Positions 8,600 to 58,529 are shown, numbered from the stretch's first letter. The stretch is DNA of 64,000 nt from an uncultured Gammaproteobacteria bacterium (GCA_965231095.1 OZ246416.1:249228-313227); one strand, 5' to 3'. Numbers and translations: made by a program. Notes: generated by a model not told the origin, from the letters alone.

Positions 8600-8706
8600 G
8601 GGTAAATTTTATCCTCATTGACTATGAGCCCGGCGATAATACCGGGAAGTGTTTTGTTTTGGGAAATAGAGTATAATTAAAATGTTTTTAACTAACCCCA
8701 TAAAAT

Positions 8707-9687
8707 ATGCCTTCTGCGAAACTAGCTAAAGTAAATATAAAAATACCTGCATCATACGAACCATCTTTTGGCATAAGTAGGTGGAGTAAAAATGATTACG
8801 CGAAACCATTAATATTTAAAATCGATAATGCTGAAGCACGGATATTTTTAGAATATCCACCGACGGGGTTCTCGGTATTTCCTAAATTAAAAATATTCCC
8901 ATTTCCGAATCCATTTATAGTTTTACTGATTCGTAATCCAAGTGCTGAATTTATACAAGGATTGAAGGCGAAAAGTGGAGAAAATACTGTTAAAACGGCA
9001 GAACATATCTACAAAATATACGTAGAAGTAGTAAGTAAATTAGAAATTTTGCTTCGAACTGTAGGGGGAGTTAAAAATTTATATGAACTCAGAACTCCGC
9101 CAATAGAAGCGTTATTCAAAAAAAATATTTTAGATTATCCAGTTACCTTTCAAATAGATTCAGAAGATAAAAAACCCTTTAGTCCGAAATTTTCGACAAG
9201 GTCAAGGAGAAGGAACCCTCTTTTTAAAGCCGATCAGCTTGTAACGCCAGATAAGTGGGGGAAGATGCAAAGAGCCATTGATAATCGATATTACGCAAGC
9301 CAAGAAATTATTGAAATATTAAGAATACGAGCGAAGCTATTAGGAGAAAATAAAAAATTAGCAACTCTCGAATCTGCAATTCTTTTCGAAAGTCTGCTGA
9401 GAGACTATTCGCGTAAGACTCTTGAAGAGAGGGGAGTCAGCAATACAAAGGTGAAGGAAGTTAGTGATGAATTAAATTTCAATAATATCCTCAATCTGCT
9501 ACTTCCCCTCAGTTTAAAAAAGGCAGAGGTCCTTAAACTTCGCGAAAGTATAAATACGATTGATGCATTGAGAAAAATTAGAAACAAAGTCATTCATGGA
9601 GAATTGACAGAAGATAAGATTGATAAAAAAATAATTGAAAAGGGGATTGAGGGGGGACTGAAATTGATTAGATTTTTATTTAAATGA
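8707..9687 (+). CDS. Hypothetical protein with a C-terminal HEPN-like Rx4H motif (326 aa); possible Abi-type RNase
   Basis: The C-terminal helical region reads …IDALRKIRNKVIHGELTED… (R-N-x3-H-G, as in HEPN/Abi_2-type domains). The rest is unrecognised. Confidence 0.4.
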   Translation: MPSAKLAKVNIKIPASYEPSFGISRWSKNDYAKPLIFKIDNAEARIFLEYPPTGFSVFPKLKIFPFPNPFIVLLIRNPSAEFIQGLKAKSGENTVKTAEHIYKIYVEVVSKLEILLRTVGGVKNLYELRTPPIEALFKKNILDYPVTFQIDSEDKKPFSPKFSTRSRRRNPLFKADQLVTPDKWGKMQRAIDNRYYASQEIIEILRIRAKLLGENKKLATLESAILFESLLRDYSRKTLEERGVSNTKVKEVSDELNFNNILNLLLPLSLKKAEVLKLRESINTIDALRKIRNKVIHGELTEDKIDKKIIEKGIEGGLKLIRFLFK

Positions 9688-30181: not shown

Positions 30182-30661
30182 CTAGACCGCGATGGGCTGG
30201 TTCACGTAGAAGGCGGCGAGCGTGGCGATGATCTTCATCGCCTCAGCCTCGCCGATCTGGCGGAAGTCGCCGGCCGAAACCCGGCAGTCGGCCGCCAGAC
30301 TGCGGATGGTCTCGGTTCCGTCTCCCCCGATGCGGGTGGAGCCCTCCACTCCCCAGATATTGGCATCAGGGAAGTAGCTGACCAGGATCAGGCGTTCGCT
30401 TTCCTCTCCTCCGGTCAGAGCGACTTCGATCGAGGTGGGCTCCCACCTCTCTTGCTCTTCCTTGGGGGCGCTGGGGCTCACGCGCCCGAAGACGAGATCC
30501 CAGCCGAGGAGGAAGCCGCTGCGCGCCGACGTGTCGAAACCGGCGATGATGTCGTCGTAGTGGACGGCCTCATGCCCGTGGACGCGAAGCCTGGCAAAGA
30601 TCTCCTCGACTTTCTGGCACAACACGATCGTCTTCTTCAATCTTTCGAGCCGGGAATTCAT
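30182..30661 (-). CDS. Hypothetical protein, paralog A of a tandem 3-member family (GC-rich)
   Basis: Shares MxSRLxxLxxxIxLCxxVxxIF…GFxxxxxSGxLLGW…SIEVxL…AxxIIxTLxxFY with the neighbouring ORFs. It has its own TTGACA-17-TAGATT promoter and SD gaaggaggg. Confidence 0.5.
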   Translation of the reverse strand: MNSRLERLKKTIVLCQKVEEIFARLRVHGHEAVHYDDIIAGFDTSARSGFLLGWDLVFGRVSPSAPKEEQERWEPTSIEVALTGGEESERLILVSYFPDANIWGVEGSTRIGGDGTETIRSLAADCRVSAGDFRQIGEAEAMKIIATLAAFYVNQPIAV

Positions 30662-33789: not shown

Positions 33790-34107
33790 ATGGTAACGAT
33801 TGAGGTTGGGAATACGGGAGTAGAAGAACGGAAGCGGCGATTCAAGGATATGCTGACAAAAGAGATCGTGAAGATCGGGGGCATCGGAGACAACGTGGAT
33901 GTGACGATCCGGTTCTGTGGCGCGACAGACCGGAGGCGAGGGCCGCTCAATCTCCACATTTTGGACGGCAGCGGTCTTCCGGGCCATCTTCACGGCAAGA
34001 TCGCCGAGGGTCTTTGCTCGGTAGCCAGGAGGTTCTACGAGGAAAACGGCCACGGTGTCCGACCGGTGGAAACTACGATCGGTTCCGTTTTGCGCAAAAT
34101 CGACTAG
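33790..34107 (+). CDS. Hypothetical protein (105 aa), GC-rich
   Basis: Own promoter TTGACT-16-TAAAAT, SD gggaggcgg, and terminator gcggcag…ctgccgc+T-run. Confidence 0.45.
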   Translation: MVTIEVGNTGVEERKRRFKDMLTKEIVKIGGIGDNVDVTIRFCGATDRRRGPLNLHILDGSGLPGHLHGKIAEGLCSVARRFYEENGHGVRPVETTIGSVLRKID

Positions 34108-37985: not shown

Positions 37986-38501
37986 TTAGTTGTACTTTAT
38001 AGCGCCAAATTTTAAAATAGTAATTTTTTCTTTAGATAAATTTATACCGGCTTTATGGCAAACTGCCTTTATTTGTTCACCTCGCGTATTTATTCCCTTG
38101 AGGTCTGGTAGAAGCAACCCGGATTTTCCCGTTTCCGATCTCACTAAAATTCCATATTTTTTTGGATCAAGTTCGTCTATATTTTTTATTTCCCGCGGTT
38201 CATCCAAAACATAGACTGAGTAGGAAAGTTTTGGCAGTTCTTCTTTAGTGATTGGGTTGAAGCGATAATCTTCCGTTGCCGCAGAAATGGAATTTTGCAT
38301 AATTTCTTCCGCAAGAGTTGGTGCGGTCGGAAGGTAGGTACCAATACATCCGCGCAGATTTTTCCCATTATAAATACTTACAAAAACCCCCGCCCGAGAA
38401 GCCGTAAATTTTTTTGGCAAATCTTTGGGTGGGGGAGGAATTTTTCCTGTTTTAAAATAACCTTCGATTGCATCTTTAACCAGTTTTACGTGGGCGTTCA
38501 T
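37986..38501 (-). CDS. AMMECR1 domain protein (AmrA-like). ATG at 38501 is preferred over the longer track ORF, which would overlap Memo by 52 nt.
   Basis: LRGCIGTY motif. Confidence 0.7.
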   Translation of the reverse strand: MNAHVKLVKDAIEGYFKTGKIPPPPKDLPKKFTASRAGVFVSIYNGKNLRGCIGTYLPTAPTLAEEIMQNSISAATEDYRFNPITKEELPKLSYSVYVLDEPREIKNIDELDPKKYGILVRSETGKSGLLLPDLKGINTRGEQIKAVCHKAGINLSKEKITILKFGAIKYN

Positions 38502-38502
38502 T

Positions 38503-39294
38503 TTATTCGAGTTTAAAATTAGCAACAAGATATCCAACGCCGAACGGCCCCTCATACGACAAAATTTCCGGTACGTAGTTTATTCTTTCGAGCAGCCCGA
38601 GAAGAATTAAAATTGAGCGCAGGCCGCATTCACCGGCTTTCTCCACCAAATCAACATCCAATTTTAAAATTCCCGCGGTGTTTTTATTGGTAATTAATTC
38701 TGTTAATTTATCATCAAATTCTTTTCCTCGCGGCGAATATCCGGCCGGCGCGTCTTTTGTCAGGTGATGGGAAAGATCTCCGGAAGCGATTACCGCGATT
38801 CTTTTATCTTCGTTTAAAATTATTTCTTTTAAAATATCCCCGAAATTAAAATGGGTTTTAAAATCAAGTAAAGAATATCCGAGAGGCAGAATGGAAACAT
38901 GGGGAAGATTTTTCGTCAAAAAATAAAGAGGGACAACCGCGCCGTGATCCAAAAATTCATCACTCGTCAGAGTAAGAGGAATATTTTTATCTTCCATTAA
39001 TTCTTTAATGCGGAAAGCCAGGGCGGTATTCGTTTTAAATTTAATTTTTGTGGAAAAATCTCCAAACTCTTCCAAATTACTCGCGTACTCGGGATTTAAA
39101 TTAATAGAGAAAGCGTCGGGCAAAAGCGAGCCGTGCGGGGAAATTATAATTACGGTATCGGGCTTGGCCGCGACAATTTTTTTTTCCAATTCCAAAAGCG
39201 CCTCGGCGGTTTTTTTAATTCTCTTTGTATTTTCCCGGCCGATAGCCGGGATTAAAATCGGGGGATGAGGAGTAATTGCCGCAAAAGTTAGCAT
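38503..39294 (-). CDS. Memo-like / AmmeMemoRadiSam system protein B
   Basis: MLTFAAITPHPPILIPAIG…ISPHGS…ASGDLSHHL (extradiol dioxygenase class III-like Memo fold). Confidence 0.75.
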   Translation of the reverse strand: MLTFAAITPHPPILIPAIGRENTKRIKKTAEALLELEKKIVAAKPDTVIIISPHGSLLPDAFSINLNPEYASNLEEFGDFSTKIKFKTNTALAFRIKELMEDKNIPLTLTSDEFLDHGAVVPLYFLTKNLPHVSILPLGYSLLDFKTHFNFGDILKEIILNEDKRIAVIASGDLSHHLTKDAPAGYSPRGKEFDDKLTELITNKNTAGILKLDVDLVEKAGECGLRSILILLGLLERINYVPEILSYEGPFGVGYLVANFKLE

Positions 39295-39315: not shown

Positions 39316-40716
39316 TTAATTGTTAACCGTTGTCTCAACCGCGCCGCCAAGATAAATTGTTGAACCGACCGGATGCAAAGACAAAATTTTATCCGTGGTT
39401 TTTATAATGTTTGTCCATTTGAAACCAAGCCCGTTAAAAACCTGTTCAGTGGGAATGGGGCGGCGTTCGCCGTTGGAAATAAAATAAACCGTCGGCGAAG
39501 TTTCTCCCACTACCAATTCGCCATCTTTAAATTTTATTGGTTCGCCGGTGGAATATTTTTTTAATTCATCGGGAGAAACAACCGTGATTTTTTTATTCGC
39601 AAAATATAGAGTTAAAAATTGTTTCGCCCAAATTGGTTTTTTAATTCCATTTTCCACGTAATAAACTCCTCCGGAAGTTTTATCTTGCAAGAGCGCGCCG
39701 GTTGGATAAATGCTCTGCATAGTAATCGGATCGTTTTCAATGTAGAGATTTAAATCTTCCCAGGTCGCGTCCATAACTTCTTCCGGATTAAATCCGATCG
39801 TGCGAAAAACTTCGTTTGAAGAAAATCCTCGCCGCGTGTCGCCGACCAAAAGATAAACCGTGCCGGCGGGCGAGCGGAGGAGGGAATAATCGGCAAATTT
39901 TATGGGCGTGCCGGTTTCGTAATTTTCCAACTCGCTTTTTGAAACAGTAATTAATTTATCCGGAGAATACCGCGAGACAAAAGCGGAATAACTTGAAAAT
40001 TGGCGTTTAAGGCCGCGCTGAAGTAACCAAATATTTGATCCATCAGCTTCTTTTAAAACCGTTCCATCGGGAAAAAATTTTCCAAACCAATCCTGCCAGA
40101 GTTTCCAAAAATTATAATTGCCGTGGTAGTGCGGGGTGTAAGTATAAAAAGCCGCGGTAGCCAAATTGTTTGGAGTGATTTTGTAAGTATCAATCAAATA
40201 AGTGACGCCGGGTAATTTCACCCAAGAAAGAGTAAGGGCGTTATCCAAAAACCATCGTTTCCAGCCGGCGGCGTAATCAACTTGCGTGGCAAACCCTTTG
40301 TATTTTTGCAAAGTGGGATCAGACATTGAGCAAGAATCACAAATTCCATAACCGGTCGCCCAATCAAGTTGCTTTTGTGTCGGAAGAGCGGTCGTCACCA
40401 AACTTTGTTCCTTTTGTAAAGTTACAAGCAAAACTTTTGGGCTGATTTTATAACTTTGAGCCACACGCCAAATAATTTCCGACGCGGTTCGGCCAAGTCC
40501 ATCCGTATCAATCGTCGCGTAATAGGCGAGCGAGCTGCCTTTATCTTCCAAAAATTTTTGAATTTGCGCTAAAGACATTGAAGAATGATCTGTTAACTCT
40601 TGGTCGGAAATAATATAGTTAGGATTGAATTCAGCCAGGGCAAAATTAATAAACAAAAGCTGGCTTAATACAAATATAGCCAAAATACGCATAAGCTTTG
40701 GTAGTTTTAATTTCAT
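39316..40716 (-). CDS. Secreted hypothetical protein (about 466 aa) with a signal peptide
   Basis: MKLKLPKLMRILAIFVLSQLLFINFALA signal. The track start at 40758 is TTG; ATG at 40716. Confidence 0.5.
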   Translation of the reverse strand: MKLKLPKLMRILAIFVLSQLLFINFALAEFNPNYIISDQELTDHSSMSLAQIQKFLEDKGSSLAYYATIDTDGLGRTASEIIWRVAQSYKISPKVLLVTLQKEQSLVTTALPTQKQLDWATGYGICDSCSMSDPTLQKYKGFATQVDYAAGWKRWFLDNALTLSWVKLPGVTYLIDTYKITPNNLATAAFYTYTPHYHGNYNFWKLWQDWFGKFFPDGTVLKEADGSNIWLLQRGLKRQFSSYSAFVSRYSPDKLITVSKSELENYETGTPIKFADYSLLRSPAGTVYLLVGDTRRGFSSNEVFRTIGFNPEEVMDATWEDLNLYIENDPITMQSIYPTGALLQDKTSGGVYYVENGIKKPIWAKQFLTLYFANKKITVVSPDELKKYSTGEPIKFKDGELVVGETSPTVYFISNGERRPIPTEQVFNGLGFKWTNIIKTTDKILSLHPVGSTIYLGGAVETTVNN

Positions 40717-40849
40717 ATTTTCTATAAATAGTATAGCATATTTTCCCCTTGACAACAAATAAGTTATCTGTTATTATATAGCCATCTTGAAGTGGGGAAG
40801 TCCTTCACGGCGAAGGGCGACTTCTCCCTACGGAAGAAGGAGGAACAAG

Positions 40850-40933
40850 ATGACGAGAACCAGGTACGGGCCGTTCGCGCTGTCGTACAGCGCGGAAACA
40901 TTGGTCGCTTCCTCGTCGACTTCGGCGGCCTGA
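40850..40933 (+). CDS. Candidate 27-aa peptide (MTRTRYGPFALSYSAETLVASSSTSAA) at the start of a GC-rich island
   Basis: Promoter TTGACA-17-TATTAT at 40750-40778, a structured leader, and SD aaggagg 7 nt upstream of the ATG. Speculative. Confidence 0.25.
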   Translation: MTRTRYGPFALSYSAETLVASSSTSAA

Positions 40934-40947
40934 CCGGCGCCCCACCG

Positions 40948-41077
40948 GCGTCCTCCGTTCTCGGTGATCCATTCACACTAGGCATCGTCGTCCTGACAAT
41001 GCTACACCGAGGACAAAGTTCCTAACCCGTCTGCCGACCCAAGGTTCATCCAAGAATCTTTCTGGGTCGGCTTTTTT
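40948..41077 (+). repeat. Direct repeat copy 1 (about 130 bp, includes a terminator hairpin)
   Basis: About 98% identical to 41800-41929 apart from one divergent 14-bp patch; ends gccgaccca…tgggtcggc+T7. Confidence 0.75.
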
Positions 41078-41184
41078 TATTTCAAATAAAATTTGACAAA
41101 AAATATAGTAAATGTAAAATGCGGAACATATAGTTTGAAAGCGGAACATGGGGTTCTGCTACGTGAAAGGGAAGGGAAAAGAAG

Positions 41185-41775
41185 ATGACGAAGATTCTGT
41201 TTGCGTTCTTGTTCGGGTTGCTGATCGTCGGCGCGGCAAATGCGTCGACCACCACCATCTATGGAACCGCCTGGGATGACGACATCACCGTGATGCGGTA
41301 CCACTACAGCGGCTTCCTGGTTGAGGGGGCATGCGTCAACAATACGTGGCACTTGGGCGGAGACGCCACGTCGAGCGATCTCATCTACGTGTACGGAGGG
41401 ACCGGTGATGACCGCATCGACGTGATCACCACGGATGGTGATTTTTTCGTCTGTGGGGGTGAGGCGAAGCGCGTCTACAGCCTCGACTACAGCTACGCGT
41501 GCCCAGGAGTTTTGCTCTCCGGAGATGATGACGACGATGTTCTCGTCGGCGGAGAATGTGCCGAGGTGCTCTCGGGTGGCGACGACAACGACACCTTATT
41601 CGGAGGGGCAGGTTGCGACTACCTCTATGGGGGTTGTGGCTCGGACTGCCTGTCGGACAGCAACGTCTGCACAGTCGACTGCGGCGAGTGCGGAACCGAC
41701 AACGACTCAGAGGCAACGCCCCTGTCTCCCTCGAGCTGCGAGAACTCCGCGATGTTCTGCTTCATCTCGGGGTGA
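41185..41775 (+). CDS. Secreted RTX-like calcium-binding repeat protein (196 aa)
   Basis: Signal peptide MTKILFAFLFGLLIVGAANAS; GGxGxD-type repeats (YGGTGDDRIDV, LSGGDDNDTLFGGAGCDYLYGGCGSD); Asp/Cys-rich. Promoter TTGACA-16-TAAAAT upstream. Confidence 0.55.
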   Translation: MTKILFAFLFGLLIVGAANASTTTIYGTAWDDDITVMRYHYSGFLVEGACVNNTWHLGGDATSSDLIYVYGGTGDDRIDVITTDGDFFVCGGEAKRVYSLDYSYACPGVLLSGDDDDDVLVGGECAEVLSGGDDNDTLFGGAGCDYLYGGCGSDCLSDSNVCTVDCGECGTDNDSEATPLSPSSCENSAMFCFISG

Positions 41776-41799
41776 CGAGGTCTGGGCTAGCAGCCTTTC

Positions 41800-41929
41800 C
41801 GTCCTCCACTCTCGGTGATCTATCTATATATAGCATCGTCGTCCTGACAATGCCACACCGAGGACAAAGTTCCTAACCCGTCTGCCGACCCAAGGTTCAT
41901 CCAAGAATCTTTCTGGGTCGGCTTTTTTT
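41800..41929 (+). repeat. Direct repeat copy 2
   Basis: See copy 1; together they bracket the RTX-like gene. Confidence 0.75.
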
Positions 41930-42027
41930 ATCTCTTGACGGAAAATTAAATATAATTTAACCTAAGCAAAAGGTTAGAAACCTTGACGCGAGGCAGTTCG
42001 CCCGCGTGGAAAAGGGAGGGAAGTAAC

Positions 42028-42279
42028 GTGGAAACTACGCTGTTCGCGATCTGGATCGTCGGGGTCGTCTTGGTTCTGGCGGCTGGGGTATGTTGGGAGT
42101 GGTGGCTCGAAGTTGAGGAGAGGAATCACGGGGAGCCGTGGTTCGGCACCGTCGTCTTCGTGGCTCTCATCTGGCCCGCACTTCTGTGCTTCTTTGTCTT
42201 GCCCATGGGGATCATGCGGGTTTGGGGCAAGGTAGAGGAGGTGATGGCGAGAAGGAGATTCGCGAGAGGAGAGTGGTAA
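42028..42279 (+). CDS. Small 2-TM membrane protein (83 aa, GTG start)
   Basis: SD aagggaggg 8 nt upstream of the GTG; W-rich TM helices. Confidence 0.4.
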   Translation: METTLFAIWIVGVVLVLAAGVCWEWWLEVEERNHGEPWFGTVVFVALIWPALLCFFVLPMGIMRVWGKVEEVMARRRFARGEW

Positions 42280-42476
42280 TGATAGACATCCTTGGTCCGT
42301 TGATCGGCGTTGCGTTCGCCGCGGCGTTTGCTCTGGATCTTTGGTGCGAGCCGCTCCTGTTCGACACCTTCGGCACCTCTGGTGCGACCGGGTTCTGGGA
42401 GAACGGTGCCCAGACCCGTTGCACATTCGTCGAGACCGCTCCTGTTCGGATCGCTGGAGAGTGCTCGCTCGCTTGA
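42279..42476 (+). CDS. Small protein (65 aa) coupled to the previous ORF (TAATG overlap)
   Basis: MIDILGPLIGVAFAAAFALDLW… hydrophobic N-terminus. Confidence 0.35.
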   Translation: MIDILGPLIGVAFAAAFALDLWCEPLLFDTFGTSGATGFWENGAQTRCTFVETAPVRIAGECSLA

Positions 42477-42581
42477 TCGGCCCGGACAACGTAACCGTCG
42501 CGTTGGACACCCGGGCAAAATGAGGAATGGCGGCTTACCTGCGGCACGACGCCCCATCCGAGGGAAGGAAGGAACCCCGGC

Positions 42582-42857
42582 ATGATAAGTGCTGGAATCG
42601 TGCCTGCCCTCGTGCAGATCTGCGTCGGTGGTAACTGGGACGTCTGCTCTTACACTTCGCCGTTGTTTACGTCCGTCCATCACGACGGTCGTACGAACGA
42701 CCTCGACGGACGAGACGGTGTCTTCGAATGCTCGGAGGACGCTCCGCGCGTTCGCGACGAGGTGACGAGCGCCCGGCCAAGCGGAAGCCCGCTCCTGGCC
42801 GTTCGTACCAGTACACCGTGCAGTTCATGCGCGAGACAGGCACGCGCGCCGCCCTGA
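42582..42857 (+). CDS. Hypothetical Cys-containing protein (91 aa)
   Basis: SD ggaagga; followed by terminator cccggct…agccggg+T6 (about 42864-42912). Confidence 0.35.
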   Translation: MISAGIVPALVQICVGGNWDVCSYTSPLFTSVHHDGRTNDLDGRDGVFECSEDAPRVRDEVTSARPSGSPLLAVRTSTPCSSCARQARAPP

Positions 42858-43018
42858 CGTAACCCCGGCTTGTGAAGAGACCGAAATATCTTCCGAGCCG
42901 GGTCTTTTTTATGTCGCAAAAATTCAAAAATCCTAACCAATATGCTGGATAGGATTTTATGTTGGAGTCCCGATTTTAGTCGGGCAAAATTGCCCACTCT
43001 AAAGAGTGGATTCCGTTT

Positions 43019-45652
43019 TTATTTCACCGCGAAGGTGATTTTTTTATCTTTATCCAATCCGATGGCAACCTTATCTCCATCTTTTATTTTTCCTTCAATA
43101 ATCTGCATGGCTAATTCATCCAGAATCATATTTTGAATTACGCGTTTCAGCGGCCGGGCGCCAAAGAGCGGATCAAAACCCTTTTCCGCAAGCATTTTTT
43201 CTACCGCGTCAGAAATATCCAGTTTTATTTTTTTGGCATCAAGCCGTTTTTGCACTTCAGCCAATTGCAATTCAATAATTTTCCCAATTTCCGATTTCCC
43301 CAAACTTTTGAAAATCACAATCTCGTCAATGCGATTTAAAAATTCCAATTTAAACGTCTCGCGCAAAATTTCCATAATCTTGTCGCGCATTTCATTGTCG
43401 CGGCTTGCTTCCTGATTTTCTCCGTCACGAAATCCGATAGAGTAATCTCGTATAACTTGATTTCCTAAATTTGAGGTCATGATAATGATCGTGTTTTTGA
43501 AGTTCACGGTACGGCCGCGGCCATCGGTCAGGCGTCCGTCGTCTAAAATCTGGAGTAAAATATTAAAAACTTCCGGATGGGCTTTTTCAATTTCATCAAA
43601 AAGTACGACAGAATACGGCCGGCGGCGAATTGCTTCGGTTAATTGTCCGCCCTCGTCATAGCCAACATATCCGGGGGGAGAGCCGACAAGCCGCGCCACA
43701 GAATGCTTTTCCATATACTCTGACATATCAACTCGAACAAGCGCGTTTTCATCGTTAAACATAAATTCGGCCAGAGCTTTTGAAAGTTCGGTTTTTCCAA
43801 CTCCAGTCGGCCCGACAAAAATGAAGGAGCCGATTGGTTTCTTTTCTTCGGAAATTCCGGCGCGAGAACGGCGGAGGGCATTGGCAATGGTTTTGATTGC
43901 GTCTTTTTGGCCAATAACCCGACGCCGAAGTTCGTCTTCGGCGTGCGCCAATTTTTCCACTTCACCTTGGAGCATTTTCGAAACCGGAACGCCGGTCCAG
44001 CGGGAAACAACCTTGGCAATATCTTCATCAGTGACTTCTTCGCGCAAAATTCTTTTTTCCCGCGGCGTCTTTTTAAGTTTCTTTTCAAGTGCGATAATTT
44101 CTTTTTCCAATTCGGGAATTTTTCCATAGCGAATCTCGGCGACTTTTTCCAATTCACTTTTCCGCTCGGCAATATCGGCCTGCTGTTTGGCCGCGTCAAT
44201 TTGTTTTTGAGCTTTTCTGATTTGACTGATTAAGTCCTTTTCATAACGCCAGCCGATTTCCAATTCTTTTGATTTTTCCTGCAATTCAGCCAATTCTTTA
44301 TTTAATTTTTTTAACTCATCTTTAACGTCTTCATTCTTTTCTTTCAAAAGAGCCTGGCGTTCAATCTCCGACTTCATCATTTTTCGTTTCAGTTGATCAA
44401 GCTCGGTGGGCATAGAATCAATTTCCATCCGGAGAGCGGAAGTCGCTTCGTCAATTAAATCAACCGCTTTGTCCGGCAAAAAACGGTCGGAAATATAGCG
44501 ATGCGAAAGAGTCGCCGCCGCGATAATCGCCGCGTCGGTAATTTTTACGCCATGATGAACTTCATATTTTTCTTTAATGCCGCGCAAAATCGCAATCGTA
44601 TCTTCGACTGACGGCTCTCCAACGTAAACCGGTTGAAAACGTCGTTCTAGAGCCGCATCTTTTTCAACGTACTTGTGATATTCTTTTAAAGTTGTCGCCC
44701 CGATTGTATGGAGTTCGCCGCGAGCGAGGGCCGGTTTTAACATATTTGAAGCATCCATCGCCCCCTCAATCGCTCCGGCGCCAACAATCGTGTGCAGCTC
44801 GTCAATAAATAAAACAATTTTTCCGGCGGCTTGTTTTACTTCTTTAATTACAGCTTTCAGGCGGTCTTCAAACTCGCCGCGAAATTTTGTTCCGGCCAGC
44901 AATGATCCCAAATCCAGGGAAATTAATTCTTTATCTTTCAAACTTTCTGGCACGTCACCGGCGACAATTCTTTGCGCCAAACCTTCAACAATCGCGGTTT
45001 TCCCCGTGCCCGCCTCACCAATCAAAACCGGATTATTTTTTGTCCGGCGGGAAAGAACTTGCATCACACGGCGGATTTCTTCGTCACGGCCAATGACCGG
45101 ATCCAATTTTTTCCCTCGAGCCAGTTCGGTAAGATTAATTGTATATTTTTCCAAAACTTGATATTTCGCTTCCGGTTCCGGAGAGTCAACTTTTTGCGTG
45201 CCACGAACTTCAACTAAAACTTTAAGCGCACCATCATAAGTAACGCCTGCGTTAAATAAAATTTCCCCAGCCCGACTTTTTACGCCAACTAATCCTAAAA
45301 GTAGATGCTCAGTACTGATATATTCATCTTTCATTTTTTTGGTTTCTTTTTCCACGGCGTAAAAAACCTGAACCATTTCCTGGCCAACATTCATCTGCGC
45401 CATACCACCCTGGCGCCGGCCGGAATGTTTTGGCAATTTTTGAAATTCTTCGGAAATTTTTTGTTTCAAATCTCCGACGTTAATTCCTAATTTTTGAAGT
45501 AGAGAGCCGACAATTCCGCCCTCCTGATCCAAAAGCGCGGAAAGGACATGGAGCGGATCTAAATACTGATGATTATATTCAAAAACCAACCCCTGGGCCG
45601 CCTGAAGAGCTTCTTGGGATTTGGTGGTAAAATTTTGCGGAAGCATTGGCAT
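43019..45652 (-). CDS. clpB: ATP-dependent chaperone ClpB
   Basis: Two AAA+ modules ([15 protein letters not shown]; [15 protein letters not shown]) separated by a long coiled-coil middle domain; N-terminal Clp_N repeats. Confidence 0.95.
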
Positions 45653-46185: not shown

Positions 46186-47208
46186 TTATTTTAAAATTAA
46201 ATTTAAATCTTCTCCGCATTTGGCGCATTTACCATTTTTATCATGACGCACAATTTCATATCCATGACGTTCAACCATTTTTACTCCGCACTTTGGGCAA
46301 AATGTTGTTTCGTATTCTGGCAGCGCCACATTGTCTAAGTAAACGTATTTTAGTCCGGATCTCTTTCCGACTTCCCGAGCTTCAATGAGTGACGACGGGG
46401 GAGTGGGCGGCAAATCTCGCAGTCTGTAGGTTGGAAAAAATTTGGAAATATGCCAGGGAGTTTCCCTTCCCAATTCTTTGGCGATAAAATTGGCAATGCC
46501 TTCAAAATGTTCTGCCGTATCATTTCCTCCGGGTACAACAAGAGTTGTAACTTCCACCCAAACTCCGCCTTGTTTTATGATTTTTAAAGTTTGCAAAACC
46601 GGCTTTAATTTCGCTCCGCAGACCGTGTAATAAAATTTTTCAGTAAAACCTTTAAGATCAATATTTACCGCGTCAAGATAGGGGATTGCTTCGGTTAAAA
46701 CTTCGCGGCTCGTGTAGCCATTTGACACCCAAACATTTTTTAAATTATTTTTTCGCGCGAGTTTCATTGTCTCCAGGGCAAACTCAATAAAAATTGTCGG
46801 CTCGGAATAAGTGTAAGAAATTGACGGCGCTCCGGAAAGCAAGGCCTCGCTCACAACTTCTTCCGGCGTCATATCTTGGCCCGGGACATTTTCTTCCCTT
46901 AAGTCGCTCTCTTTGGGCATTTGGGCAATGTCCGCGTTTTGGCAATAAAGGCATCTAAAATTACATCCAACCGTGGCGATGGATAAACTTTTCGTCCCGG
47001 GCAAAAAATGGAAAAGAGGTTTTTTCTCAATCGGGTCAATATTTTTGGCAATTACTTTTCCATAAACTAATGAATAAAGCGTGCCGTCAATATTTCGCCG
47101 CACAGAACAAATTCCGCGCCGCCCGGGAGAAATTTGGCAATAATGATTACAGGCCTGGCATTGAACCTTTTGTTCCTCTAATTTTTTATAAAATTGTGCC
47201 TCTTTCAT
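46186..47208 (-). CDS. Radical SAM enzyme, AmmeMemoRadiSam (AmrS)/PFL-activase-like. The track start at 47226 is TTG; ATG at 47208.
   Basis: CNFRCLYCQN (CX3CX2C) with an N-terminal CxxC…C zinc knuckle and a C-terminal CPKCG…CAKCG. Confidence 0.75.
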   Translation of the reverse strand: MKEAQFYKKLEEQKVQCQACNHYCQISPGRRGICSVRRNIDGTLYSLVYGKVIAKNIDPIEKKPLFHFLPGTKSLSIATVGCNFRCLYCQNADIAQMPKESDLREENVPGQDMTPEEVVSEALLSGAPSISYTYSEPTIFIEFALETMKLARKNNLKNVWVSNGYTSREVLTEAIPYLDAVNIDLKGFTEKFYYTVCGAKLKPVLQTLKIIKQGGVWVEVTTLVVPGGNDTAEHFEGIANFIAKELGRETPWHISKFFPTYRLRDLPPTPPSSLIEAREVGKRSGLKYVYLDNVALPEYETTFCPKCGVKMVERHGYEIVRHDKNGKCAKCGEDLNLILK

Positions 47209-47286
47209 ACTATACGATTGTACCAAAAATTTGTAAAAAAATAAACCGACGCTTCCTCCCTTGCGTCGGTAATGTTCTTTCGCAGA

Positions 47287-47475
47287 TCACTTCTTCTCTT
47301 CCCATCCGCGCGCGATCAGTTCGGCATCATGCATGGTGAGTTTCCGCGAGTTGAAGCGCAACCCCCGAAAAACGTCGGGCGGCAACTTCTCGCGCAGGTA
47401 GCGCAAAGCGGCTTCCGTCTCACCGTGCCGATCGCCTTGCGTCACACCCTTCTGTCCACCTTGTTGCTTTGTCAT
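47287..47475 (-). CDS. Hypothetical small protein (62 aa), last gene of the GC-rich minus-strand operon
   Basis: Follows the Zn-ribbon gene; terminator hairpin ccgacgc…gcgtcgg+T-run at 47236-47262 (minus sense). Confidence 0.35.
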   Translation of the reverse strand: MTKQQGGQKGVTQGDRHGETEAALRYLREKLPPDVFRGLRFNSRKLTMHDAELIARGWEEKK

Positions 47476-47489
47476 TTTTTCCTCCGATT

Positions 47490-47957
47490 CTACGCCGCCT
47501 CACCCCGTGGAACTACGCCGCAGTCCGGACACTGGATGATCCGCTCGAACGACTTTGTGTACGTCCCGAAGGCGTGCTTGTTTCCGCAGCGGGGACAGGC
47601 GAGATCGTACTTGATCCAGTGAACGTGCTTCTCCCAGTCGCAAATCAAACATCGCAGAACAAAATACGGCGGCTTCATCTCCCTGGTCTGCATGCCGTTG
47701 TGTCCGCACCTTTGGCAAAAAAAGCCCGTGTCGCAGTGAACGCAGTGACCCTTGCCATCTGCCGGAATGGCGCAAACATGAGGATGGTGTTGCGGCGAAA
47801 TTTGCAGCCGCGCCCTTGTCAGGCGACTTTCGGCAGCCGCGCCTATCCCGACACGAACCACGCAAGCGTGACACTGCGAGCAAAGCCCTCCTTGCTTCCG
47901 CGGATGCCCGCAATTCGGGCAAGGATCTCCGTCGTATTTACCCCAAGAGTCTTCCAT
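47490..47957 (-). CDS. Multi-zinc-ribbon protein (155 aa from ATG 47957; the track's GTG start is at 48023)
   Basis: Seven CxxC pairs (CPNCG, CSQCH, CVHCD, CQRCG, CLICD, CPRCG, CPDCG); SD ggagag. Confidence 0.45.
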   Translation of the reverse strand: MEDSWGKYDGDPCPNCGHPRKQGGLCSQCHACVVRVGIGAAAESRLTRARLQISPQHHPHVCAIPADGKGHCVHCDTGFFCQRCGHNGMQTREMKPPYFVLRCLICDWEKHVHWIKYDLACPRCGNKHAFGTYTKSFERIIQCPDCGVVPRGEAA

Positions 47958-47967
47958 TTTTTCTCTC

Positions 47968-48147
47968 CTATCCGGAAACGTTCGGTCCGTAGATGGTCCG
48001 ATACGCCTCTTCAAAACGCGCACCTTCGCGTACTTTTACGGCGCGGAGTGCCGCAGTCCAAAACACAACAGACGCGCGCTCCTCAAACGACAAATTTCTC
48101 CACCACCTGAGAACTTCGCGTTGTTTTTGAGTTTCCTTCCTAGCCAT
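47968..48147 (-). CDS. Small protein (59 aa; MARKETQKQREVLRWWRNLSFEERASVVFW…), first gene of the GC-rich operon
   Basis: Not in the ORF track (below 60 aa). Strong SD aaaaggagga before the ATG; promoter TTGACT-17-TAGATT upstream (about 48185-48215, minus sense). Confidence 0.3.
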   Translation of the reverse strand: MARKETQKQREVLRWWRNLSFEERASVVFWTAALRAVKVREGARFEEAYRTIYGPNVSG

Positions 48148-48265
48148 TTTTCCTCCTTTTCTACCATAAATCTATCAAAAAACCTAAATTTAGTCAATCC
48201 CCAAAAGTTTGCCTAAAATTATAAAAAATGCTACAATTTTATACTAAATACTTTATGACATATTA

Positions 48266-57902: not shown

Positions 57903-58070
57903 ATGACAAAAGGCAAAAAATCGCCAAGGATAGCACGGCGATGGGCAAAGGCCTTGAAGACATACGGCGCGAGAAGCTGGAGGGAGCTCACCCCAGAGGA
58001 ACGGTTCGCGGCCTACGAGAGAGGGCTTCACTACTGGCAAAATCAGGAGGGCACACTTCCTCTGAGCTGA
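57903..58070 (+). CDS. Small basic protein (55 aa; MTKGKKSPRIARRWAKALKTYGARSW…) in a GC-rich block
   Basis: Not in the track. SD aaggaggg 8 nt upstream; promoter TTGCGA-16-TAAGAT; terminator ccggcg…cgccgg+T-run downstream. Confidence 0.25.
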   Translation: MTKGKKSPRIARRWAKALKTYGARSWRELTPEERFAAYERGLHYWQNQEGTLPLS

Positions 58071-58181: not shown

Positions 58182-58529
58182 CTACTTCGCCAGGTGCAAA
58201 TCGATCCGGCAGAAGCCCATCTCCTCGCGCTCCTCGGGCGTATTGGGCGTCGTCGCCACCTCGATCTTCTCGCCCTCGAGCTGCATGGCCGCGATGATCT
58301 CGCAGATCTTGACCAAAAGCGGCTCATCGCCACTCTCAGAATTGTCATCGAATTTCCGATGGGTCCACCCACCCCCCTGTCCCCCACCCACGATGAGGAT
58401 CTGGCTGCGGCCGAAGAGACGGACGGCGTTCAGAGCGTTCGTCACTACTTCCGGCTCGATCGTGCCGCGAATGCCGAACGCCGCCGGTTTCTGGCGCAAG
58501 GCCAACTGAAGTACGAGTTTCTGACCCAT
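58182..58529 (-). CDS. Hypothetical protein (115 aa), GC-rich
   Basis: SD aaggagg before the ATG; Gly-rich ILIVGGGQGGGW segment; terminator hairpin downstream. Confidence 0.4.
   Translation of the reverse strand: MGQKLVLQLALRQKPAAFGIRGTIEPEVVTNALNAVRLFGRSQILIVGGGQGGGWTHRKFDDNSESGDEPLLVKICEIIAAMQLEGEKIEVATTPNTPEEREEMGFCRIDLHLAK

Follow-up and report, generated by a model that had tools for sequence, protein, structure and literature searches.

Why does a GC-rich islet of about 2.2 kb carry a gene for a predicted calcium-binding repeats-in-toxin (RTX) protein between two nearly identical direct repeats? The question is posed by positions 40780-42912 of a 64,000-nt stretch of DNA (GCA_965231095.1, OZ246416.1:249228-313227; hereafter, the window), for which an earlier note, made from the sequence alone, had proposed that the repeats are either a duplicated module or a recombination substrate. 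Comparison with related genomes led us to a reading that we consider probable, namely that a Falkowbacteria-like Patescibacterium carries here an accessory islet specific to its lineage and composed of autonomous units, and that the repeats are two copies of a 3′ module, termed E, which end the first unit (U1, with a 27-codon open reading frame, ORF) and the second unit (U2, with the RTX gene). The third unit, U3, encodes the small proteins p83, p65 and p91.

The direct repeats and the units that they close

Variants of the islet in related genomes and contigs, designated here by L numbers, were found through the p65 protein family and through a nucleotide pattern of the U3 leader, the pattern retrieving L209-L213. 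The order in the window is U1-E, RTX-E, U3 (p83, p65, p91) and clpB. The order in L085 and L088 is U1, U3 (p83, p65, p91), RTX-E and clpB, and in L001 an RTX-E unit adjoins clpB. Seven fully covered islets (L003, L004, L005, L083, L084, L210 and L212), together with several partly covered ones, consist of U1-E and U3 with no RTX unit, and p83 occurs in this group only in L209 and L210. With the RTX unit present in 4 and missing from 7 of the 11 fully covered islets, these architectures indicated that U1 and U3 are the common core and that the RTX unit is facultative. Its slot also differs, being located between U1 and U3 in the window, after U3 in L085 and L088, and next to clpB in L001.

The sequences flanking the two E copies pointed to their origin. 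Immediately upstream of copy 1, ~38 nt match the L084 flank of U1 without a difference, and the upstream flank of copy 2 is orthologous to the 3′ flank of the RTX gene in L001, L085 and L088. Since the flanks match their own units, each E copy is the native tail of its unit and not a local duplication. The idea of a duplicated module bracketing a cassette could not be upheld, because E follows the U1 ORF in genomes that have no RTX unit and follows the RTX ORF in L001, L085 and L088. A covariance model of E (CM; model R1, built from 6 copies) retrieved 11 full copies in 9 genomes, each directly 3′ of a U1 or an RTX ORF, so that the repeat, which was to be sought elsewhere, was indeed found in relatives and always in these two positions. 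E closes U1 in at least 8 genomes and the RTX gene in 4 of the 4 loci having one; after U1 of L085 and L083 it is truncated or much altered (42 and 39 bits). Nothing comparable was detected by R1 in the rest of the 64-kb window, in ~1 Mb of the relatives' clpB loci or in 80 IMG/VR loci. A 15-base E pattern gave only chance matches in IMG/VR, none of them scored by R1 at the pattern site, and the exact pattern of the RTX-type P2 helix had 0 matches in collections of genome and metagenome contigs, a search that was uninformative as these collections lack both this genome and L001.

An assembly artefact was considered and ruled out as the source of the repeats. Positions 41902-43570 are reproduced with 100% identity in the Logan assembly of SRR8863431 (L002), which starts exactly 30 nt (k-1 at k=31) before the end of the exact run shared by the repeats, indicating a branch of the de Bruijn graph at a true repeat with two continuations in the reads. 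The independent assembly thus branches at the repeat, and each unit with its E copy is also present in other genomes.

Structure of the 3′ module

The repeats are 131 nt long each, with a start-to-start distance of 851 nt, and one core of 38 nt has exactly two occurrences in the window, none being expected by chance. Their overall identity is 91.6% (11 mismatches: 7 C/T, 2 A/G and 2 T/A swaps), so that the earlier estimate of about 98% applies to the 3′ three quarters only, the 98 nt past a divergent patch containing 1 mismatch (99%). The longest exact run, of 77 nt, ends at 41080/41931. Eight of the 11 mismatches fall into the 12-nt patch at 40970-40981 (CATTCACACTAG) and 41821-41832 (TATCTATATATA), where 5 of 8 differences are C in copy 1 and T in copy 2; at this site it is copy 2 that stands apart, the loop of copy 1 being like those of other genomes.

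Both copies are predicted to fold stably (copy 1, -46.1 kcal/mol, z = -5.4; copy 2, -41.0 kcal/mol, z = -5.3) and, as had been noticed before, end in the same terminator, an identical hairpin followed by a T7 tract, which a simple terminator scan missed because the stem has an internal loop. The consensus of E comprises a 10-bp P1 helix, an asymmetric and variable internal loop, a lineage-specific P2 hairpin, a linker of ~18 nt and the intrinsic terminator. In the E alignment, which was fitted to the model and therefore leans towards structure, pairing extends to 96% of cells, against at most 47% in slid controls, and compensatory changes occur at 10 pairs; an independent MAFFT/RNAalifold analysis returned the same helices (P1 GC<->AU, terminator CG<->UA). 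A long-range pairing of the Shine-Dalgarno sequence (SD) with the T-run, proposed by RNAalifold, was regarded as an artefact of purine and U runs. A small ORF in E (SVLG..LTMLHRG) runs through both window copies, but it lacks a start codon and is broken in L001, and E was accordingly classified as non-coding.

Probable exchange between E copies

Between the two window copies identity is ~90-91.6%, with no difference at all in the last 60 nt, whereas to the copies in other genomes, orthologs included, it is only 63-76%. The window copies are also mosaic. The 5′ part of copy 1 is of the U1 type, the P2 helix of both copies is of the RTX type (ATCGTC..CCTGACRATGCTA), and the terminator of both is of the U1 type (GACCCAAGGTTCATCC, as in U1 of L003 and L085). 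The two E copies of L088 likewise have a lineage-specific terminator loop in common. Mosaic and homogenised copies of this kind argue for concerted evolution, by gene conversion or crossover between the E copies of one genome, and the exchange looks homologous rather than site-specific. The alternative offered by the earlier note, repeats as a recombination substrate, is therefore supported by the differing slot of the RTX unit among relatives and by the mosaic, homogenised state of E.

A template repeat/variable repeat pair of a diversity-generating retroelement was also considered and rejected: the repeats are non-coding and lie 3′ of stop codons, their mismatches are not adenine-specific, and no reverse transcriptase was seen beside the islet in relatives.

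Table 1. Positions of the islet units, their parts and the neighbouring genes in the window (aa, amino acids; TM, transmembrane).
Feature	Position	Strand	Description
AmmeMemoRadiSam protein A	37986-38555	-	
AmmeMemoRadiSam protein B	38503-39294	-	overlaps protein A by 53 nt
p480	39316-40758	-	480-aa gene without Pfam match; islet neighbour
U1 promoter	40749-40777	+	TTGACA-17-TATTAT, TG extended -10, 11/12; divergent from p480
U1 5′ leader hairpin	40792-40831	+	single-sequence fold and RNAalifold
U1 SD	40839-40843	+	GGAGG
U1 small ORF	40850-40933	+	27 aa, MTRTRYGPFALSYSAETLVASSSTSAA
E copy 1 (U1 3′ module)	40949-41079	+	CM 142.8 bits
E copy 1, P1	40957-40966/41005-41014	+	
E copy 1, internal loop	40967-40983	+	
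E copy 1, P2	40984-41000	+	
E copy 1, terminator stem	41033-41071	+	
E copy 1, T-run	41072-41078	+	
U2 (RTX) promoter	41093-41120	+	TTGACA-16-TAAAAT, 11/12
RTX leader and SD	41133-41184	+	purine-rich SD GAAAGGGAAGGGAAAAGAAG; L085/L088 homology begins at 41133
RTX gene	41185-41775	+	196 aa; signal peptide residues 1-20 (ANA/ST); nonapeptides ~71-157
E copy 2 (RTX 3′ module)	41800-41930	+	CM 134.9 bits
E copy 2, P1	41808-41817/41856-41865	+	shortened, GT>AC
E copy 2, loop patch	41821-41832	+	
E copy 2, terminator stem	41884-41922	+	
E copy 2, T-run	41923-41929	+	
U3 promoter	41935-41963	+	TTGACG (41935-41940), 17 nt, TAACCT (41958-41963); 8/12, weakest of the three; read from sequence
U3 leader	41966-42027	+	AAGGTT..AACCTT hairpin, ACGCGAGGCA..CGCGT hairpin, GGGAGGG SD
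p83	42028-42279	+	GTG start, 83 aa, two hydrophobic TM-like segments; facultative first gene of U3
p65	42279-42476	+	65 aa, TAATG-coupled to p83; N-terminal hydrophobic helix
Intercistronic hairpin	42480-42540	+	GCCCGG...CCCGGGC, then AAAATGARGAATGGCGG; between p65 and p91; by eye
p91	42582-42857	+	91 aa, 5 Cys, hydrophobic N-terminus
U3 intrinsic terminator	42862-42912	+	-23.5 kcal/mol, z = -5.7; convergent with clpB terminators 42960-43010
clpB	43019-45652	-	other neighbour of the islet
AmmeMemoRadiSam radical SAM enzyme	46186-47226	-	

The RTX unit

The 196-aa protein of U2 matched Pfam PF00353 (HemolysinCabind) at 25.5 bits against a gathering cutoff of 23 (E=1.3e-5), and in a phmmer search of the PDB residues ~28-160 matched CyaA (7.2e-12) and PrtC and other serralysins (~2e-7). 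The proposed RTX motifs thus held up in profile searches, although the NCBIfam RTX models gave local matches only, far below their whole-protein cutoffs. A loose pattern, G[GDAEN].[GDN].D, matched at six residues (71, 113, 131, 140, 149 and 167). The protein has a single hydrophobic segment at residues 1-21, with the N-terminus MTKILFAFLFGLLIVGAANA/ST of Sec type, a signal call that is based on hydropathy and the ANA/ST site; it is very acidic (32 Asp+Glu versus 5 Lys+Arg) and contains 12 Cys, each of which has a counterpart in P0002, the L001 ortholog, by direct reading of the two sequences. The earlier description of a signal-peptide protein rich in Cys and Asp with RTX-type repeats is in agreement with these data. 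The codon-position GC of the ORF (0.54/0.48/0.77) is clearly coding-like and dN/dS is 0.16-0.18 against three orthologs; judged by these sequence comparisons, the protein has genuine RTX repeats and evolves under purifying selection.

An AlphaFold2 model of the protein is all-beta, with a mean predicted local distance difference test score (pLDDT) of 69, rising to ~80-84 over residues 21-80 and 111-160. The top 25 Foldseek matches in the PDB were serralysin-type proteases, RTX lipases and the CyaA RTX domain, with E values of at least 0.013, below significance, and the best TM-score was 0.42 (root mean square deviation 2.6-3.8 Å), to CyaA block V (entry 9p0c). Among 5.8 billion proteins only the orthologs described here were retrieved (4 RTX loci including the window), all other matches covering the repeats alone.

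Classical RTX exoproteins are exported by type I secretion through an uncleaved C-terminal signal and have no N-terminal signal peptide (Linhartova et al. 2010, PMC3034196). The Sec-type signal of the islet protein, along with the lack of genes for an ATP-binding cassette (ABC) exporter or a membrane fusion protein within ~5 kb of the RTX gene, places it among the RTX-repeat proteins but outside the classical type I RTX exoproteins. The tandem GGxGxDxUx nonapeptides (GGTGDDRID, GGDDNDTLF, GGAGCDYLY, GGCGSDCLS), the significant sequence matches, the acidic composition, the predicted extracellular location and the predicted all-beta core are shared with RTX beta-roll domains such as the C-terminal domain of serralysin/PrtC and block V of Bordetella CyaA. 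In contrast to the known RTX proteins, it is just 196 aa long with no catalytic or pore-forming domain, carries an N-terminal Sec-type signal in place of a C-terminal type I signal, has 12 conserved Cys, some in the repeats and some in a Cys-rich tail, is encoded by a Patescibacterium, and has few orthologs (4). The protein most likely acts outside the cell or at its surface, where it would be folded by Ca2+ and locked by disulfides, and is unlikely to be a pore-forming toxin. An effector role in episymbiosis, as the earlier note had envisaged, is speculation.

The -10 region of the RTX promoter (AATGTAAAATG) is common to L085 and L088. Just 3′ of this promoter, at 41121-41149, the 9-mer GCGGAACAT occurs twice, 20 nt apart, and at this site the leaders of L085 and L088 exceed that of the window by ~60-70 nt; the site is possibly the junction of a microhomology-mediated deletion.

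The U1 unit

U1 begins with a promoter whose position and sequence are kept in L003, L005, L083-L088 and L210, followed by a leader hairpin for which RNAalifold, applied to 10 leaders, found 14 pairs, 4 of them with compensatory changes (z = -4.0 for the fold of the whole U1). The 27-aa ORF has orthologs of 22-33 aa in seven relatives (L003, L005, L083, L084, L086, L088 and L210) with the common pattern M-x-(I)-R-Y-G-P-(F)...(G-N-H/Y-M)...S/T-rich-stop, in which R-Y-G-P is kept via synonymous codons (Arg AGG/CGG/CGA, Gly GGG/GGT). The conservation of amino acids through synonymous changes argues for translation of the small ORF. Within it, RNAalifold gave a single 2-bp helix and no other conserved pairing. 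The string GTCGAC..CTGACC is conserved at the stop codon and may act at the nucleotide level, instead or additionally. A variant ORF with a basic N-terminus (VKKKRLVAMKLF.., MRSNRRVFVKLF..) and the S/T-rich end retained is found in L004, L211 and L085 (region 4380-4600 of L085). The consensus promoter, structured leader and SD-ATG Ser/Thr-rich ORF with which the islet was said to begin were all recovered here, with a promoter score of 11/12, a covarying hairpin and orthologs of the ORF. U1 is no decayed paralog of the RTX unit, as beyond the SD/start region and E their similarity does not exceed that of shuffled controls.

The U3 unit

The five ORFs of the islet (27, 196, 83 with its GTG start, 65 and 91 aa) are as the earlier note described them, and the GTG-start protein with two TM segments, the coupled 65-aa protein and the 91-aa Cys protein of U3 are all conserved in relatives. 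A correction concerns the third, weak promoter (TTGACG-17-TAACCT): TATAAT at 41951, taken before as its -10 box, lies 10 nt from the -35 box, and the counterpart in L004, L085, L088 and L212 is TTGACA-17-TAATCT, with the -10 at 17-nt spacing. The leader that follows is nearly invariant over ~14 loci, its single-sequence fold being not significant (z = -1.3).

Homologs of p83 occur in L085 (75%), L209 (63%), L210 (45%) and L088, with an ortholog identity range of 42-76% and a conserved start position (ATG in L085 and L088, GTG in L209 and L210), and the gene is absent from L003-5 and L083-84. Its codon-position GC (0.57/0.43/0.76) is clearly coding-like, that of p65 and p91 more weakly so. In PHROGs, p83 weakly matched two families, one of unknown function (E=4.6e-4) and one of a phage 'membrane protein' (E=4.1e-3), and neither the other U3 proteins nor the U1 peptide had any match. 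For p65, a word search returned 8 homologs in 5.8 G proteins and an exhaustive profile search 18 cluster representatives in 1.84 G; the homolog alignment contains two invariant Cys, and its AlphaFold2 model was too poor to be usable (pLDDT 52). The hairpin between p65 and p91 and the AAAATGARGAATGGCGG after it are conserved in nucleotides (L003-5, L084, L209-L213) without a consistent reading frame and may be an RNA processing or stability element. p91 is 49-53% identical among orthologs (tblastn: L084, L085, L088 and L209, 47-51%), and its SD and M-x-S/N-A-G start are kept in all variants. The U3 terminator is conserved in relatives with what appear by eye to be compensatory changes. For the three genes overall dN/dS is 0.5-0.75 (p83 0.57-0.75, p91 0.5-0.6), at dS values of 0.23-0.75 for p83, 0.32-0.58 for p65 and 0.60-0.76 for p91, compared to 0.88-1.23 for clpB.

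A fixed chromosomal slot with variable content

The islet has ~60% GC versus 42.0% for the whole window; in 200-nt windows GC is 56-66% over ~40800-42900 and 30-45% in the flanks. It is read from the + strand, both neighbour genes lie on the - strand, and it falls into three blocks, each with an AT-rich promoter, a purine-rich SD, a GC-rich body and a hairpin with a T-tract. The same chromosomal slot holds the islet in at least 12 related metagenome-assembled genomes (MAGs) or contigs. The spacer between clpB and p480 measures ~0-100 bp in distant relatives and in L006 and L007, 540 bp in L008, ~1.05 kb in L003, L004 and L005, and 2.26 kb in the window, and the order clpB-p480-p263 is kept in dozens of Patescibacteria loci. 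This length variation at one site indicated that the islet is the variable content of a fixed intergenic slot. In L008 the slot is occupied by an unrelated ORF of ~130 aa (8626-9166), and in L006 (8690-8760) the U1 -35 box is joined to the 3′ half of the terminator (CTGGGTCGGTTTTTTT) with nothing else of the islet left, which looks like a deletion scar.

The host assignment to the candidate phyla radiation (Patescibacteria), made before from the sequence alone, is supported by ClpB, which is 89-94% identical to proteins of Candidatus Falkowbacteria and Patescibacteria MAGs. The AmmeMemoRadiSam trio is split around the islet, with clpB and p480 in between, and the order rSAM-clpB-p480-B-A recurs in many Patescibacteria loci. 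The N-terminus of p480 resembles, by eye, a signal peptide.

Database searches gave the small islet proteins (p83, p65, p91 and the U1 peptide) 0 matches in Pfam and NCBIfam, and PADLOC had 0 matches for any islet protein. No integrase, phage, plasmid or defence match and no tRNA-linked integration was found for the islet. Rfam over 40700-43050 returned no match with E <1, the best being mir-228 (18 bits) and SorX (15.6 bits), far below gathering. Elsewhere in the window Rfam detected a full-length LOOT RNA (RF03000; 6985-7115, +; 77 bits against a gathering cutoff of 46.4) and, as the only other match, a tRNA (1563-1634). The literature searched held no account of islets of this kind, nor of Patescibacteria with RTX proteins.

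Age and origin of the GC-rich composition

GC at third codon positions (GC3) is 0.77-0.78 in all 4 RTX orthologs and 0.62-0.77 in the p83/p65/p91 orthologs, whereas clpB of these genomes has 0.34-0.42. Between the RTX orthologs dS is ~0.6 with GC3 unchanged, which indicates that the GC-richness is old and maintained and not the result of a recent import, an origin that the sharing of the islet among relatives at this distance also contradicts. In blastn the islet had 0 matches in 50,697 phage and 72,556 plasmid records, and IMG/VR held neither an RTX relative nor an E copy.

A second GC-rich islet, at 47251-48150 (-), separates the radical SAM gene from the conserved gene that follows (48266) and has three small ORFs of 62 aa, ~155 aa (a zinc-ribbon-rich sequence) and 59 aa. 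In relatives this slot is ~115 bp long and empty in L004, and L005-L008 have no homologs of its ORFs; the 155-aa ORF is 78% identical in L084 and 45% in L003, pointing to another variable slot. Further GC-rich ORFans (~56-67% GC) are present at 30182-30661 (-), 33790-34107 (+), 57903-58070 (+) and 58182-58529 (-), with GC3 of 0.68-0.84 for the three checked. By eye they are built like the islet units: an AT-rich promoter of sigma70-like type is followed by a long purine-rich SD, and the terminator is a hairpin of GCCGAC type. None had a significant Pfam match, nor the three longer ones a match in PADLOC or PHROGs.

Alternative explanations

Integron-like, attenuator or small-RNA, bacteriocin and horizontal-transfer readings are all less likely than an islet of autonomous units. 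A site-specific cassette system, with E as an attC-like site and the RTX cassette moved by a dedicated recombinase, would agree with an imperfect palindrome of 131 nt at cassette 3′ ends, conserved more in structure than in sequence, with a facultative RTX cassette of ~850 bp whose slot varies, and with an islet at one fixed chromosomal site. The likeness to integron cassettes extends to 0.3-1 kb units in one orientation, a structured 3′ palindrome on some of them, and presence and order that vary among close relatives. However, within ~5 kb on either side there is no recombinase in the window or in relatives (the genes there are PriA, AmmeMemoRadiSam A and B, p480, clpB and the radical SAM gene), and the islet lacks an integrase, attI and attC cores: E starts with GTTCTC and ends with GAGRAC, its P1 arms read GTTCTCGGTG...CACCGAGGAC, and no RYYYAAC...GTTRRRY cores are present at its ends. 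Unlike integron cassettes, each unit carries its own promoter and terminator, E closes two of the three units with U3 being equally part of the islet, and the mosaic, homogenised copies fit homologous exchange, all of which makes an integron-like system very improbable. A bacteriocin or ribosomally synthesised and post-translationally modified peptide, with the U1 peptide as precursor, the small proteins serving immunity or export and the RTX protein as a rhizobiocin-like antagonist, appears quite improbable for different reasons. The peptide does have a leader-like conserved N-terminus (RYGP) and a variable S/T-rich tail, its neighbours are small TM or hydrophobic proteins, and p83, p65 and p91 evolve fast, but none of ~15 islet variants contains a modifying enzyme, protease or ABC exporter, so that the suggested conservation of the peptide beside modifying enzymes was not found. 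The peptide also has no Cys, signal or double-glycine leader, and the nearby radical SAM gene belongs to the widespread AmmeMemoRadiSam trio, found at the same place in islet-less genomes.

U1 with its E could also be a regulatory RNA device, either a leader-peptide attenuator, with translation of the S/T-rich ORF setting how far transcription passes the E terminator into the following unit, or a dual-function small RNA whose E loop pairs with targets and whose 3′ domain also occurs on the RTX mRNA, and we regard this as unlikely. A short conserved ORF with a run of S/T codons just before the stop, the conserved string at the stop codon, a terminator 100-150 nt downstream with another unit always next, and an internal loop that is the most variable part of E, like a possible seed region, are what such a device might show. 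The downstream units have conserved promoters of their own, however, and the consensus fold of 9 sequences contains no conserved antiterminator alternative; in the window the stop codon is ~25 nt upstream of P1, which a terminating ribosome is not expected to open, and the same E follows a 196-codon gene, where attenuation is senseless. The 64-kb window has no site complementary to either loop patch. Recent acquisition from a GC-rich donor, phage or plasmid, with the repeats as insertion scars or as an assembly or chimera artefact, is hardly credible. GC 18 points above the genome background, small proteins that are all ORFans and RTX repeats most like proteobacterial proteins would speak for it; these observations are outweighed by the shared slot in at least 12 related MAGs or contigs, the unchanged GC3 of 0.77-0.78 at an RTX dS of ~0.6, host-type promoters and terminators, the absence of phage, plasmid or IMG/VR relatives in the blastn, RTX and E searches, and the independent assembly that reproduces 41902-43570 and branches at the repeat.

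Discussion

According to the model that we favour, each unit would have its own sigma70-type promoter, a long purine-rich SD, 1-3 small ORFs and an intrinsic terminator. U1 would yield a ~300-nt RNA with a conserved 5′ hairpin and the 27-codon ORF; U2, a Sec-exported, very acidic, 12-Cys protein of 196 aa with a core of predicted RTX calcium-binding repeats; and U3, the 2-TM protein p83, the coupled p65 and the Cys protein p91. At the RNA level, E would terminate transcription and give both transcripts the same protective or recognition 3′ end. At the DNA level, it would provide 77-131 bp of portable homology, through which gene conversion and RecA-type crossover could move, insert and delete the 851-bp promoter-RTX-E segment. 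The high GC may be kept by selection or by GC-biased gene conversion.

Several points weigh against this reading. The direction and mechanism of the RTX move allow several readings: Campbell-type integration of an 851-bp circle, unequal crossover and transformation with a relative's DNA would each give the present arrangement. Simple homogenisation does not account for a 12-nt patch with 8 mismatches in otherwise near-identical copies, and the E count in the source genome covers 64 kb of 886 kb. The high dN/dS and low dS of p83, p65 and p91 mean that part of their conservation could be at the nucleotide level. Support for the modelled beta-roll is moderate only (pLDDT 69, Foldseek E >0.01, best TM-score 0.42), and the promoters, the 3′ ends and the part that E would play in RNA are predictions from sequence.

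Compared with enterobacterial repetitive extragenic palindromes and bacterial interspersed mosaic elements (REP/BIME) and with stabilising 3′-UTR (untranslated region) hairpins, E is similarly an imperfect palindrome lying straight after the stop codons of unrelated genes, with a terminator, and its copies act as substrates of homologous recombination or gene conversion. In contrast to REP/BIME, it is longer (131 nt), combines a two-level hairpin with its own terminator, has no Rfam family, and was seen at one locus in 1-2 copies per genome and not in hundreds of dispersed copies. The islet as a whole resembles intergenic accessory 'islets' in having one slot in all relatives, variable content (empty, a 0.5-kb unrelated ORF, 1 kb or 2.3 kb) and ORFans, and the second slot at 47.2-48.2 kb behaves alike. 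It differs from the usual islets in that its content is old, vertically shared and compositionally distinct without amelioration, and in that its units are oriented opposite to the flanking operon. The locus is thus a variant of known themes (islets, RTX repeats and repeated 3′ palindromes) and not a new kind of system.

A bolder idea is that GC-rich units, each a complete promoter-ORF-terminator module and some of them ending in E, form an integrase-free system of cassette exchange at two or more slots (40.8-42.9 and 47.2-48.2 kb), in which modules would be reordered, gained and lost by homologous recombination and gene conversion, perhaps with relatives' DNA, diversifying small secreted and membrane proteins of the symbiont-host interface. 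We rate it as rather unlikely; if true, frequent GC-biased conversion would explain why GC3 is ~0.7-0.8 in the islet compared to ~0.4 in the core.

Patescibacteria have tiny genomes, are thought to live on other cells and are generally regarded as lacking an outer membrane. To our knowledge, little is known of their surface and secreted proteins or of the turnover of their accessory genes. The islet proteins may be extracytoplasmic and relevant to symbiosis. Current ideas are not overturned by this locus, which offers a clean and comparatively well-resolved case of a fixed slot with varying content and autonomous units, in which a predicted Sec-exported mini-RTX unit has been repositioned. E would be a previously undescribed, covarying 3′ RNA module, common to two unrelated genes and evolving in concert, and the islet, whose GC3 has stayed high through long divergence although the genome is AT-rich, could serve for a test of GC-biased gene conversion in the phylum.

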